Shown piece by piece: positions 40,787-51,488 of a DNA stretch of 64,000 bases. This DNA comes from Acidimicrobiia bacterium. Lineage in GTDB: Bacteria > Actinomycetota > Acidimicrobiia > Spongiisociales > UBA11373. Below the pieces are notes generated by a model, which had not been told where the DNA came from, ran no database searches, and was given only the letters and a program-made list of their open reading frames with translations. Location of the stretch: positions 5,344-69,343 of the forward strand of contig JBKKBI010000062.1 in the NCBI GenBank assembly GCA_046714175.1, in the 5' to 3' direction. The position numbers and the translations under genes were made by a program. Positions within the stretch are counted from its first letter, which is position 1; each line of letters starts with the position of its first letter.

Positions 40787-40832
40787 CCACTACCCGCTAC
40801 CCGCTACCCGGTACCCGTTGCCCGTCGCCCGC
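40787..40832. repeat. Tandem heptamer array (ctacccg-type) in the nuoD-nuoE junction
   Basis: ccactacccgctacccgctacccggtacccgttgcccgtcgcccgc. Confidence 0.6.
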
Positions 40833-40886
40833 AGAGCGCGGCGCCTATCGCCCACCGCCGATCGCTTCTCTGCAAAGGATCCCGCC

Positions 40887-41495
40887 GTGTGGGATGAGGC
40901 CACCCTGGCGCGGGCGCACTCTCTCGTTGCTCAGTATCCCGAGCCGCGGTCCGCGGTGATGCCGTTGCTATTTCTCGCCATGCGCAACGACGGCGGGCTC
41001 ACCGATGCCGGGATGCGGCGGGTGGCCGAACTCACCGGGGTGACGCCGGTGCAGGTCGAGGCGGTGGCGTCCTTCTACAACATGTATCTGCGCCGTGTCG
41101 GTCGCCATGTCGTCTCGGTGTGCCGTTCCATCTCGTGCCATCTGCTCGGTGCGGACACGGTGCGAGACGCCGTTGTCGACGAGGCCGGAGTTCCAGAAGG
41201 CGAGACGGCTTCCGACGGGTCGGTCACAGTGGTGTTCACCGAATGTATCGGCGCCTGCGGAGGTGCCCCGGCGATGCAGGTCGACTACGAGATGGTGGAG
41301 GGCATGACGCCCGAATCGGCCCGTCGGCTGATCCGCTGGCTGCGTGAGGAAAAGCCGGAGGCTATCCGCTCCGACGATCTACAACAGCGCTTCGGCGGCG
41401 GTCAATCGTTCGATTGGGGACCTGACGACTCCACCGCGGCGCTCGGCCCCGTTCCGGCGTTCGGCCCCTATGGCACCGCGGGAGGAAGCGCATGA
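40887..41495 (+). CDS. nuoE: NADH-quinone oxidoreductase subunit E
   Basis: YPEPRSAVMPLLFLAMRNDGG...CRSISCHLLGAD...CIGACGGAPAM. GTG at 40887 with an AAAGGA RBS is preferred. The alternative TTG at 40818 lies inside the heptamer repeat. Confidence 0.8.
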   Translation: MWDEATLARAHSLVAQYPEPRSAVMPLLFLAMRNDGGLTDAGMRRVAELTGVTPVQVEAVASFYNMYLRRVGRHVVSVCRSISCHLLGADTVRDAVVDEAGVPEGETASDGSVTVVFTECIGACGGAPAMQVDYEMVEGMTPESARRLIRWLREEKPEAIRSDDLQQRFGGGQSFDWGPDDSTAALGPVPAFGPYGTAGGSA

Positions 41496-42778
41496 CTACC
41501 CGCCTGCTCACCACGCGTATGGACGAGAATCGCACCGACTCTCACACCATGACCCGGTACGAAGCGACCGGCGGCTACCAGGCGCTGCGCAAGGCATTAC
41601 AGATGACCTCGGAGGCCATCGTCGCCGAGGTCAAAGCGTCCGAGATGGCCGGCCGCGGTGGCGCCGGTTTCCCGACGGGTGTCAAGTGGGGATTTCTCGC
41701 CCCGGCCCGTCCCCACTATCTGGCGGTGAATGCCGACGAGTCGGAGCCCGGGACCTTCAAGGACCGAATGCTCATGGAGCGCGATCCGCACCAGATGATC
41801 GAAGGCACGATCATTGCCTCGTTCGCTCTCGCGGTGAATCACGCATTCGTGTTCGTACGGGGTGAATACCCCCGCGCCGCCCGGCGACTGCAGCAGGCGA
41901 TCGACGAGGCTCATGCCGCCGGGTATCTGGGGGAGAACATTCTCGGCAGCGGGTTCTCCCTCACGATCACGGTCCATCTGGGCGCGGGCGCCTACATCTG
42001 CGGCGAGGAGACCGCGCTGCTCAATGCGCTCGAGGGACGGCGCGGTGAGCCACGCATCAAGCCCCCGTTTCCCGCCGTCGAGGGCCTCTACGGCCAGCCC
42101 ACCATCGTCAACAACGTCGAGACTCTGTCCAACCTCCCGTGGATCATCACCAACGGTGGTGCCGCCTACGCGGCGATCGGGCCGGAGGGGTCGAAGGGAA
42201 CCCGCTTGTTCTCGGTGTCGGGTCATGTCGCCCGGCCGGGCAATTACGAGATCGTGATGGGGATGACGTGGCGCAATCTGATCTATGACCTCGCCGGTGG
42301 CATCCGCAACGGCCACGAACTGAAGTGCTGGATTCCTGGGGGAGCTTCGGCGCCGTGGTTGGTGCCGACCCACCTCGACGACGAGATCACCGTGCAGGCC
42401 TGCCTGCGCCTGGGAACCATGCTCGGATCCGGTGCGGTGGTGGTCATGGACGAGACCACCGACGTGGTGGCCGCGGCGCTGAGCATCGTGCGCTTTTTCT
42501 CCCACGAGTCGTGCGGGCAGTGCACTCCCTGCCGCGAGGGCACCACCTGGATGGAGCGCATCCTGGAGCGCATCCTTAGCGGGCAGGGGCGGGCCACCGA
42601 CATCGACCTGCTGCTCGACGTCAGCGACAACATCAGCCCCGGGCTGCGCTGGCCACCGGTGATGACAACGATCTGCCCGCTGGGCCCGTCTGCGGTGTCG
42701 CCGATCACGTCGATCGTGAACAACTTTCGCGACGAGATCGAGGCCATGATTCCGCGTCAGGAGACCTCAGGTGTCTGA
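41492..42778 (+). CDS. nuoF: NADH-quinone oxidoreductase subunit F
   Basis: GRGGAGFPTGVKW...ESCGQCTPCREGT. Confidence 0.9.
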   Translation: MTTRLLTTRMDENRTDSHTMTRYEATGGYQALRKALQMTSEAIVAEVKASEMAGRGGAGFPTGVKWGFLAPARPHYLAVNADESEPGTFKDRMLMERDPHQMIEGTIIASFALAVNHAFVFVRGEYPRAARRLQQAIDEAHAAGYLGENILGSGFSLTITVHLGAGAYICGEETALLNALEGRRGEPRIKPPFPAVEGLYGQPTIVNNVETLSNLPWIITNGGAAYAAIGPEGSKGTRLFSVSGHVARPGNYEIVMGMTWRNLIYDLAGGIRNGHELKCWIPGGASAPWLVPTHLDDEITVQACLRLGTMLGSGAVVVMDETTDVVAAALSIVRFFSHESCGQCTPCREGTTWMERILERILSGQGRATDIDLLLDVSDNISPGLRWPPVMTTICPLGPSAVSPITSIVNNFRDEIEAMIPRQETSGV

Positions 42779-49783: not shown

Positions 49784-49857
49784 AGGGAGGGCCGGTGACC
49801 GCCTATCGCCCATCGCTCCTCTGGCAGCCATCGGGAGTCGTGTCTCGGGAGAACTCC

Positions 49858-51390
49858 ATGCCTGAGTTCCCGATTCTCTCCACCCTCATCCTGTTGCCGG
49901 TGATCGGCGCGGTGGTACTGCTCGCCATCCCTTCGCGTCGCGCCGAGGTCGTCATGCCTACGGCGGTGGCGGCTTCGCTGCTGACGCTGGGGGCGGCGCT
50001 GTGGATGCTGATCGAGTTCGAGAGCGGGGTGGCCGATTTTCAGTTCGTCGAGCAGTCGTCGTGGTATCAGCCATGGGGCGTGGGCTGGCACCTGGGCATC
50101 GACGGGATCTCGGTCTTTCTGGTGGTGCTGACCGCGTTTCTGTTCCCCATCTCCCTCGCCGCCAGCGGCGCGGTGAGGCACCGCGTGCGCGAGTACGCGG
50201 TCGCAATGTTGCTGCTCGAGGCCGGGATCATTGGGGTCTTCGTCTCCCTCGACCTGCTGGTCTTCTTCGTGTTCTGGGAAGTGATGCTGGTTCCGATGTA
50301 CTTCATCATTGGGATCTGGGGTGGCGAGCGCCGGGTGCACGCCGCGGTGAAGTTCTTCTTGTTCACCGCCTTTGGCTCGGCGGTGATGTTTGCCGGCATC
50401 CTGTTCCTCGGGTTCCTCGGCGGCGACGGTGCCCCCTCCTTCGACTTCGTCGATCTGCTCGGCGCCGAGCTGAGCCGCACTGCGCAGTTCTGGCTGTTCG
50501 GCGCGTTCGCTCTGTCGTTCGCCATCAAGGTGCCGGTATTCCCATTTCACACCTGGCTCCCCGACGCCCATGTCGAAGCCCCTACCGCGGGGTCGGTGAT
50601 CCTGGCCGGAGTGCTGCTGAAACTGGGCGCCTACGGATTGATCCGGTTCAACCTCACATTGTTCCCGGAGGCGGCGGTAGATCTGGTGCCGGTGCTGGCG
50701 GTGCTGGCGGTCATCGGCATCGTCTACGGCGCAATCGTCGCCATCGTGCAGAGCGACATCAAGCGCCTGGTGGCCTACTCATCGGTGAGTCACCTCGGGT
50801 TCGTCGTGCTCGGCATTTTCGCTCTCACCACCCAGGGGATGCAGGGCGGGGTTCTGCAGATGGTGAACCACGGTCTCACCACCGGGGCGCTATTCCTCCT
50901 GGTGGGGATGATCTACGAGCGGCGTCACACCCGGGAGATCGCGCAGTTCGGTGGGTTAGCCACCGTGATGCCCATCTACGCCGGGATCTTCCTCTTCACC
51001 GCCTTCGCTGCGATCGGTCTCCCCGGACTCAACGGTTTCGTCGGCGAGTTCTTCGTGCTGGTCGGGTCGTTCCTCTCGCTGCCCGTGTACGCCATCATCG
51101 CCTCCCTCGGCGTGGTCCTGGCAGCCGTGTATCTACTGTGGGCGTATCAGCGGATGTTCACGGGGCCGATCACCGTGGCGGAGAACTCCACGCTGCACGA
51201 CCTGCGCCCCGCAGAGATTCTGATCCTGGCCCCGATCATCGCCCTTGTGATCTTCCTCGGTGTCTACCCCAAGCCGGCGCTCGACCGCATCGCACCGTCG
51301 GTGGACGCGATCCTGGAGCGGATCGAAAACGTCACCGATTACGAGGTACCGGAGTGGGGGAGCACCAACGACGTGGCGGTGGAGGAATGA
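49858..51390 (+). CDS. nuoM: NADH-quinone oxidoreductase subunit M
   Basis: ATG at 49858 with a GGGAG RBS. Includes FHTWLPDAHVEAPTAGSVILAGVLLKLGAYG. Confidence 0.85.
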   Translation: MPEFPILSTLILLPVIGAVVLLAIPSRRAEVVMPTAVAASLLTLGAALWMLIEFESGVADFQFVEQSSWYQPWGVGWHLGIDGISVFLVVLTAFLFPISLAASGAVRHRVREYAVAMLLLEAGIIGVFVSLDLLVFFVFWEVMLVPMYFIIGIWGGERRVHAAVKFFLFTAFGSAVMFAGILFLGFLGGDGAPSFDFVDLLGAELSRTAQFWLFGAFALSFAIKVPVFPFHTWLPDAHVEAPTAGSVILAGVLLKLGAYGLIRFNLTLFPEAAVDLVPVLAVLAVIGIVYGAIVAIVQSDIKRLVAYSSVSHLGFVVLGIFALTTQGMQGGVLQMVNHGLTTGALFLLVGMIYERRHTREIAQFGGLATVMPIYAGIFLFTAFAAIGLPGLNGFVGEFFVLVGSFLSLPVYAIIASLGVVLAAVYLLWAYQRMFTGPITVAENSTLHDLRPAEILILAPIIALVIFLGVYPKPALDRIAPSVDAILERIENVTDYEVPEWGSTNDVAVEE

Positions 51391-51442
51391 GTCATCTGCC
51401 GTCAGTCGTCAGTCACAGCCTCCCCGCCGGTTCTGCCATCTG

Positions 51443-51488
51443 CCATCTGTCATCTGTCATCTGTGATCTGTCATCTACGACGCCGAAG
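51443..51488. repeat. Heptamer array catctgt/catctgc at the nuoM-nuoN junction
   Basis: ctgccatctgccatctgtcatctgtcatctgtgatctgtcatctacg. Confidence 0.6.

Follow-up and report, generated by a model that had tools for sequence, protein, structure and literature searches.

Heptamer repeat arrays at nuo gene junctions of an Acidimicrobiia bacterium as candidate translatable linkers between Complex I subunit genes

How can an essential 14-gene operon carry, at the junctions between its genes, tandem repeats of a 7-nt unit, a length that is not a multiple of three? The question is raised by the nuo operon for Complex I in a stretch of DNA from an Acidimicrobiia bacterium (contig JBKKBI010000062.1), 64 kb in length, which was analyzed as a whole and is referred to here as the window. 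The window has a GC content of ~67%, and the best matches of its NuoH are metagenome-assembled genomes (MAGs) of Acidimicrobiia, with no more than 70% identity to any species representative. The identities of nuoA-N, all on the plus strand, were confirmed with NCBIfam. According to a gene map based on codon usage, 92% of the window is coding and about 17 gene pairs overlap by 4 nt (-4), so that genes in this genome are, as a rule, translationally coupled. The explanation that we favor, with moderate confidence, is that the arrays are heptameric simple sequence repeats (SSRs) located in stop-free, translatable linkers that preserve the translational coupling of Complex I subunits.

Arrays were detected with Tandem Repeats Finder (TRF), by direct reading of the sequence and with our own period scan, and every array listed in a preliminary description of the sequence was recovered in this way; all of those in the operon are given on the plus strand. 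At the nuoD/E junction, 4.6 copies of CCCGCTA/CTACCCG occupy positions 40786-40817 (TRF, sequence, and period scan) and continue in degenerate form, as TTGCCCG TCGCCCG, to 40831; another degenerate stretch of period 7 (CGCCTAT CGCCCAC CGCCGAT) was found by motif search at 40842-40866. The nuoL/M array at 49757-49782 reads CTGCCCG CCACCCG CCACCCG CTACCCG (CCCGCCA x3.7; TRF and sequence), and it too has a second degenerate period-7 stretch (CGCCTAT CGCCCAT CGC, 49798-49816; period scan and motif search). The degenerate stretches of the two junctions share the 17-mer motif CGCCTATCGCCCAYCGC, which lies at 49800-49816 at nuoL/M; a search with this motif gave eight matches against 1.2 expected, and exact copies occur only at these two junctions. 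Two arrays are present at nuoI/J, a C-rich one of 3.9 copies of GCTACCC (46982-47008) within the coding sequence of the NuoI tail and a G-rich one of 4.9 copies of AAGCGGG/TAGCGGG (47027-47060) that ends at the nuoJ ATG. The latter is a near reverse complement of the former, and both were identified as hairpin arms by TRF and folding. The nuoM/N junction contains a short array of 2.4 copies of GTCAGTC (51398-51414; TRF and period scan) and a longer one of 6.4 copies of CATCTGC/CATCTGT (51432-51476; TRF and sequence). The preliminary description had reported heptamers at four junctions of the operon, three of them with a common (C)TACCCG unit. All four exist and the common unit is correct, but the nuoI/J pair sits in the coding tail of NuoI, and there is a fifth, weak and degenerate array of the CGCCTCC / CTCCCGG type at nuoG/H (45212-45233; TRF 3.1 copies, 80% matches, score 30). 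These arrays are not CRISPR, as that description had also stated, because CRISPR repeats of ~24-48 bp are separated by unique spacers, whereas the units here are 7 bp long and contiguous, with spacers absent.

The period of seven is specific. Twelve period-7 arrays were found in the window against 1.85 +/- 1.6 expected from dinucleotide shuffles. Period 8 yielded one array and period 10 none, other periods that are not multiples of three showed no excess, and periods 6 and 9 were enriched, as expected for coding repeats. The sequence CCCGCTACCCG with at most one mismatch occurs 19 times in the window (2.9 expected). All arrays with at least 2.4 copies are confined to the non-conserved NuoI tail and to the 8% of the window that is not conserved coding sequence. 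The earlier idea of a small repeat family is borne out, since arrays are also present elsewhere in the window and are abundant in a clade of relatives.

These relatives were collected by one metagenome scan with NuoM (86%, 80%, and 75-78% identity), and a junction matrix was constructed from tblastn of the Nuo proteins of the window. Two junction states could be distinguished. In array-free relatives (L001, L089, L094, L100-L102, L104, and L108) the junctions are tight, with ~3-12 nt at L/M and ~14-17 nt at M/N, and show the stop/start overlaps TGATG and GTGA. In array-bearing relatives the gaps are 91-184 nt at L/M and 106-370 nt at M/N, the I/J interval is longer, and the inserts of 55-355 nt contain heptamer arrays. 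Many relatives are rich in period-7 arrays, and no period-8 array occurs throughout the clade loci. In a neighbor-joining tree of NuoM, the array-bearing loci, including the window, form one clade, and array density is zero in all outgroup loci, which identifies the arrays as a clade-wide genomic trait. Inserts at I/J, L/M, and M/N probably date back to the ancestor of this clade, and those at D/E and G/H are newer, having arisen in the lineage of the window. The 5' edges of inserts retain a relic TGATG or TGAG, and the L/M inserts of several lineages share the flanking segment GGCTCGCTNCGCTCG. The shared flank points to one ancestral insertion, and together with the relic overlaps it argues for subsequent change in place.

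What unites the inserts is the reading frame that crosses them. Translation of the window revealed a bridging mini open reading frame (mini-ORF) on the plus strand at each of its four intergenic expanded junctions. The D/E mini-ORF (40781-40897, 38 aa) begins at an ATG that overlaps the nuoD stop (ATGA) and stops 8 nt past the nuoE GTG at 40887, and the L/M mini-ORF (49743-49865, 40 aa) begins at a GTG overlapping the nuoL stop (GTGA) and stops 5 nt past the nuoM ATG at 49858. The G/H (45197-45283, 28 aa) and M/N (51387-51500, 37 aa) mini-ORFs overlap the nuoG and nuoM stops, respectively, as ATGA, and their TGA codons overlap the GTG starts of nuoH and of nuoN (51497) as GTGA.

We compared the intergenic junctions D/E, G/H, L/M, and M/N of the window and the clade, 25 expanded junctions in total. 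All 25 contain a bridging ORF that starts on the upstream stop (ATG or GTG as ATGA or GTGA at -1, or TGATG at +2), remains open across the arrays and terminates at the downstream start. Termination is at +1 (A/GTGA) in 20 of the 25, and at -3, -2, -2, +5, and +8 in the remaining five. Composition-preserving shuffles predict only 11.7 open frames (probability product 1e-11), and the alternative frame is open in just 11 of 25 (Fisher p = 1e-5). None of the 35 stop triplets within the inserts is in frame, the other two phases holding 13 and 22. The length of the inserts is constrained modulo 3 accordingly: 22 of 25 gaps equal 1 mod 3, and between lineages the length differences among M/N inserts (97 to 355 nt) are multiples of 3, differences of 7 or 14 being absent even though the repeat unit is 7 nt. 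In the relative L099, the M/N insert consists of four copies of an 81-nt (27-codon) module within a 120-aa bridging ORF, and TAG-bearing units of its 3' arms are confined to the two non-reading phases. Single bridging ORFs were also found at other junctions in the more distant Acidimicrobiia L002, L004, and L008. The mini-ORF peptides are not conserved, and common DNA motifs are read in different frames; the conserved property is the openness of the frame and not the peptide product. A reading of the relic ATG as the start of a NuoM N-terminal extension was rejected, as this ATG and NuoM do not share a frame in L088 and L090.

At nuoI/J the insert is part of a gene. The nuoI ORF (46388-47068, plus strand) continues across both arrays to a stop that overlaps the nuoJ ATG (ATGGTTGA). 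The sole TAG unit of the G-rich arm is out of the NuoI frame. The resulting C-terminal tail is ~21 codons longer than in array-free relatives, and an independent public gene call (L163) gives NuoI the same length as in the window, 226 aa. The frame is maintained through the arrays in nine of nine array-bearing relatives, in which ~30-55 aa follow the conserved GQS motif, compared with ~8-10 aa in array-free relatives.

These observations can be arranged into the following scenario. The nuo genes of the ancestor would have been joined through overlapping stop and start codons (TGATG, GTGA, and ATGA). In one clade of Acidimicrobiia some junctions may then have gained inserts, which would have grown by tandem duplication of 7 nt, presumably through slippage, and to which an inverted copy of the array would often have been added, producing hairpin arms. 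The surviving states would be those that still let ribosomes pass between neighboring genes, either by way of a mini-ORF beginning at the old start, which still overlaps the upstream stop, and ending at a stop that overlaps the downstream start, or, at nuoI/J, by simply reading the insert as an extension of the NuoI tail. Because 7 equals 1 mod 3, slippage by a single unit would break the frame of a linker, and such frame-breaking changes appear to have been removed. The linkers would thus be translated, and coupling would be the property under selection.

Several points weigh against this scenario. Within the window alone, the openness of the inserts is not significant (shuffle p = 0.49-0.84 per insert), and in its D/E and G/H inserts none of the three phases contains a stop triplet. 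Nor are the 25 junctions independent events, given their common ancestry; what lends the result its weight is that the frame is kept across many different lengths and unit contents. Shine-Dalgarno (SD)-like motifs precede downstream genes (AAAGGA at nuoE, AGGAG at nuoH, and GAAGG at nuoN, with GGGAGGG in front of the GTG at 49795, an alternative start for nuoM), so that these genes might be initiated independently of the linkers. A distant group of peat metagenome contigs (L119-L157; GC 0.56-0.58, NuoM ~53% identity) contains up to 14 period-7 arrays per 21 kb, including arrays at the nuo junctions D/E, E/F, F/G, K/L, L/M, and M/N, and these junction arrays mostly lack bridging ORFs. A linker frame is therefore not general to heptamer arrays, and a rule extending it to all of them fails in this group. 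Outside the clade of the window, 31% of array units contain stop triplets (mostly L119-L157). Finally, slippage alone leaves unexplained why the period is 7, how inverted copies originate and why exact units are shared within a genome.

Units vary by lineage (CCCGTCG, CCCGCTA, CCCGATA, CCAGTAT, CCCGTTT, GCAATTG, CGCTATT, and CAGCCTG), and junction inserts can no longer be aligned where the coding flanks are still 91% identical. Several units across lineages have a CAGT or CCCG core in common. Adjacent arrays of the same junction are reverse complementary (at least 6/7 positions) in 36 of 88 pairs (41%) against 2.4% of random pairs, and the loop between inverted arrays has a median of ~30 nt.

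A first rival explanation is that the arrays are functional RNA elements: paired arrays would form intercistronic hairpins and single C-rich arrays unstructured spacers, which would govern the stability of mRNA segments, RNase processing, or ribosome pausing and thereby tune subunit stoichiometry. REP (repetitive extragenic palindromic) and BIME (bacterial interspersed mosaic element) hairpins act in operons of Escherichia coli on segmental mRNA stability and processing. The nuoI/J pair is indeed hairpin-capable, as the preliminary description had proposed, with a folding energy of -55.2 kcal/mol (z = -5.6), and it is the only junction insert of the window that folds far better than shuffles. 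Among clade junction inserts 15 of 30 have z < -2, complementarity of the arms is kept while the unit sequence changes between lineages, and lineages at 75-86% NuoM identity have retained inserts at the same three junctions. Better folding was obtained for the sense strand in 73 cases and for the antisense strand in 35 (p = 1.5e-4), a difference for which base composition may account. On the other hand, the D/E, L/M, and M/N spacers of the window have less structure than shuffled sequences (z = +1.6 to +1.9), and sister lineages possess the same operon with tight junctions. Mismatches in the arms show no bias of G.U over A.C (9 versus 7), so selection on an RNA hairpin is not demonstrated and inverted duplication at the DNA level could explain the complementarity. 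No Rfam family matched in the region 37000-54000 (E <= 1). A promoter and terminator consensus scan gave no site at any array, and neither terminator sites nor the pausing sites suggested earlier are supported. On balance, a function at the RNA level seems unlikely to account for the arrays, although it has more in its favor than the other rivals.

A second rival, to which we give a still lower probability, regards the inserts as small mobile elements, similar to mycobacterial interspersed repetitive units (MIRUs) or miniature inverted-repeat transposable elements (MITEs), that would have overlapping stop/start tetranucleotides as their targets and supply a coupled ORF of their own; the arrays would then be arms of the elements rather than products of local slippage. 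CTACCCG occurs at D/E, I/J, and L/M of the window, other units are present at the orthologous junctions of sister lineages, and exact units (7/7) are shared by 20% of comparisons between sites of one genome against 5.7% between genomes. Homogenization within genomes is nevertheless modest, the corresponding values at 6/7 positions being 29% and 23%. Two strains that are 96.8% identical overall differ in the units of both I/J arms. Neither this coordinated replacement nor the sharing of exact units within a genome is explained by local slippage, and both keep a copying mechanism in play. The novelty of the D/E and G/H inserts in the lineage of the window, the ATG(G) and TGA at both insert ends, which resemble target duplications, and the fourfold module of L099 also fit a mobile element, and MIRUs show such behavior. 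Against this, the inserts have no full-length consensus between sites and differ in length (55 to 355 nt) and internal order, the duplicated ATG and TGA are equally demanded by selection of any viable insert, and the common L/M flank indicates a single ancestral insertion that later changed in place. No transposase was found linked to the inserts, a genome-wide search not being included.

It is very improbable that the arrays act as G-quadruplex (G4) or i-motif elements of DNA or RNA, with effects on transcription or replication, in the manner of the GGGAATC arrays of Xanthomonas and Nostoc. Direct reading identified at least four C3 (or G3) tracts at 4-nt spacing in the D/E, G/H, and L/M arrays and in the G-rich I/J arm, as well as three full tracts plus CC in the C-rich I/J arm, and heptamer arrays of Xanthomonas and Nostoc form G4s in vitro with a preference for four units. 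However, the G4 sequence motif is absent from the M/N and other arrays, many units of the window or its relatives lack G or C tracts (CATCTGT, GTCAGTC, GAGTCAT, GCAATTG, CGCTATT, and CCAGTAT), and duplex formation competes where arms pair.

Least probable of all is that the arrays are phase-variation (contingency) switches. On this reading, adding or losing a single 7-nt unit would put the linker out of frame, uncouple the cistron that follows, and so modulate the expression of Complex I in a reversible manner. Every bridging ORF would indeed be broken by a change of one unit, and SSRs in 5' regions are known phase-variation devices, but the target is a housekeeping operon, the arrays are short (median 3.9 copies, maximum 5.7) and imperfect, and all 25 observed states are in frame. 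The slipped-strand length changes that had been anticipated for these arrays were not seen in four contigs 100% identical to the window (runs SRR31159439, SRR31159441, and SRR31159442), nor at the L/M arrays of three near-identical metagenome contigs, and L164 has the D/E spacing of the window. The same-strain contigs were obtained by exact-protein look-ups; those with NuoN and NuoL gave no matches. One short-read contig (L082; Logan SRR31159439), which corresponds to window positions 46986-47992, starts exactly at the first base of the C-rich I/J array as delimited by the period scan, which suggests that arrays break short-read assemblies.

Two start codons next to the arrays were reassessed. 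For nuoE, the preliminary description had pointed to a TTG at 40818 inside the array; this start is unlikely, since the GTG at 40887 is favored by array-free relatives as well as by a public gene call made independently. For nuoM, comparison with relatives makes the conserved ATG at 49858 the most likely start. The in-frame GTG at 49795 is a less likely candidate, although it has a strong GGGAGGG motif. At this site (49783-49797), a very strong SD-like sequence, AAGGGAGGG, is placed 4 nt 5' of that GTG and directly after the C-rich L/M array, which can pair with it in the predicted fold. The site could represent a second possible start of nuoM or a means of sequestering the SD sequence.

Two further features concern the operon and its end. 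The NuoC and NuoD homology regions lie ~275 nt apart (39351-39627), a length that is kept in Acidimicrobiia relatives (~212-296 nt); since the ORF from 39351 overlaps the nuoC stop, this suggests a lineage-specific N-terminal extension of NuoD of ~90 aa beyond the NuoD models. Downstream of nuoN (52937-53141), G/C-rich palindromes, CCTCCCCCGGAGGGGGAGG (~52984-53002) and CCCCCCTCAGGGGG (~53078-53091), together with an 8-mer repeat (53007-53022) are possible operon-end structures and do not consist of heptamers.

Several arrays are located elsewhere in the window. Seven copies of CGGAGAC (1985-2032) directly follow the stop of a minus-strand gene (2036-3586) in a 354-nt spacer that probably holds the promoter for the next gene; no bridging ORF is present, which indicates that arrays also occur at operon ends. 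A nested composite array on the minus strand (5456-5549), composed of (CTCCGGN)n, (AACGGGC)x3.7, and (CTCCGGN)n with a duplicated boundary CTCCCGGTAAC, immediately follows the stop of the gene at 5568-6725. From a CTG on that stop, one open frame extends up to 12 nt short of a 59-aa CxxC...CxxC mini-gene (5224-5400). At 6744-6788, also with minus sense, three copies of GAGTCAT, or (ATGACTC)3 on the minus strand, are followed by 2.3 copies of GATGCCG at the start of the gene 5568-6725/6755. Each GAGTCAT unit contains an ATGA start/stop overlap, and a TGA within the array closes a frame that is open from the upstream gene's stop (6839-6841). This looks like a junction caught during 7-nt duplication. 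Arrays were also observed in L061 (Ignavibacteria) and L074/L075 (Poribacteria).

If the arrays do lie in translatable linkers, heptamer repeats would be subject to a testable constraint, being tolerated in an essential 14-gene operon only with an open frame from the upstream stop to the downstream start. Such a constraint would link the dynamics of heptamer SSRs, coupled inserts of the MIRU type, and translational coupling in Actinobacteria. For genome annotation, it matters that the ~80-110 nt spacers of the window (reaching 355 nt in relatives) and 21 codons of a protein tail derive from repeats, and that starts inside arrays, such as the TTG at 40818, are easily miscalled. A bolder and more doubtful proposal, which we put forward tentatively, is that Acidimicrobiia contain an undescribed class of intercistronic element, namely self-expanding, often hairpin-forming modules of 7-nt repeats that insert at stop/start overlaps and survive only as translated linker ORFs relaying ribosomes between cistrons. 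If so, their long persistence, the coordinated turnover of arms and the sharing of units within genomes would point to an active copying mechanism or a trans-acting partner beyond passive slippage.

Among the long SSRs of SSR-rich bacteria, heptamers form the most abundant class, for which polymerase slippage has been tentatively proposed. Their over-representation in scattered bacteria has been known for decades, and a function or constraint has not been established. Known examples include those surveyed by Mrazek et al. (2007), the short tandemly repeated repetitive (STRR) sequences of cyanobacteria, GGGAATC of Xanthomonas and Nostoc, and TAACTGA of Beggiatoaceae. The arrays described here resemble them in their head-to-tail 7-nt units of ~3-6 copies, in excess of chance and specific in period, in a strong non-coding bias that includes spacers inside operons, in patchy, lineage-specific abundance, and in occasional inverted pairs. 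Notwithstanding this bias, the junction arrays lie within small open frames. They differ in their host, an Acidimicrobiia bacterium, in their units (CCCGNNN, CAGTCNT, and CATCTGT), and in the stop-free frames that bridge stop/start overlaps with an insert length constrained modulo 3. We found no description of such frames or of such a constraint for heptamer repeats in the literature that we consulted, and the Beggiatoaceae unit carries stop codons, so that it could not serve as such a linker. STRR units in heterocystous cyanobacteria are CCCCAGT, TTGGTCA, and CAACAGT. The window is no strict match to these, as its units are CTACCCG, AAGCGGG, CATCTGT, GTCAGTC, and others in an acidimicrobial host; CCCCAGT was found only in the NuoI tail of the relative L093 (3891-3924), a unit that we take to be identical to the cyanobacterial STRR1 heptamer.

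REP and BIME sequences are likewise extragenic or intercistronic within operons and form arm-loop-arm hairpins of very negative folding energy. They are characterized by an imperfect palindrome that is conserved and repeated throughout the genome, with a link to a RAYT transposase. Different from them, the arms here are tandem heptamers with many pairing registers, the inserts lie inside open reading frames, and several arrays of the window have no partner arm, as is the case in three of its spacers; no conserved palindrome was found and the arms differ between sites.

A close architectural parallel is offered by MIRUs. Their units are roughly 50-100 bp long and have a conserved consensus. By contrast, the basic period here is 7 nt, without a full-length consensus between sites, the host belongs to Acidimicrobiia, units turn over between lineages, many inserts are hairpins, and a higher-order unit, of 81 nt, occurs only in L099. 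MIRUs vary in copy number between strains (VNTR); for the nuo inserts, same-strain contigs are identical and lengths differ between lineages only in a frame-preserving manner. MIRUs insert at start codons and carry an ORF coupled to the flanking genes by -4 overlaps, which is thought to minimize the effect on expression (Supply et al., 1997). Compared by description, the nuo inserts share with them the position at start codons in intercistronic regions of an actinobacterial genome and the ORF that overlaps the flanking stop and start, and the M/N insert of L099 adds a tandem unit repeated four times within a coupled ORF. The feature may thus be described, from its sequence organization, as heptameric SSR or STRR-like arrays that appear to be arranged as MIRU-like coupled linker ORFs.

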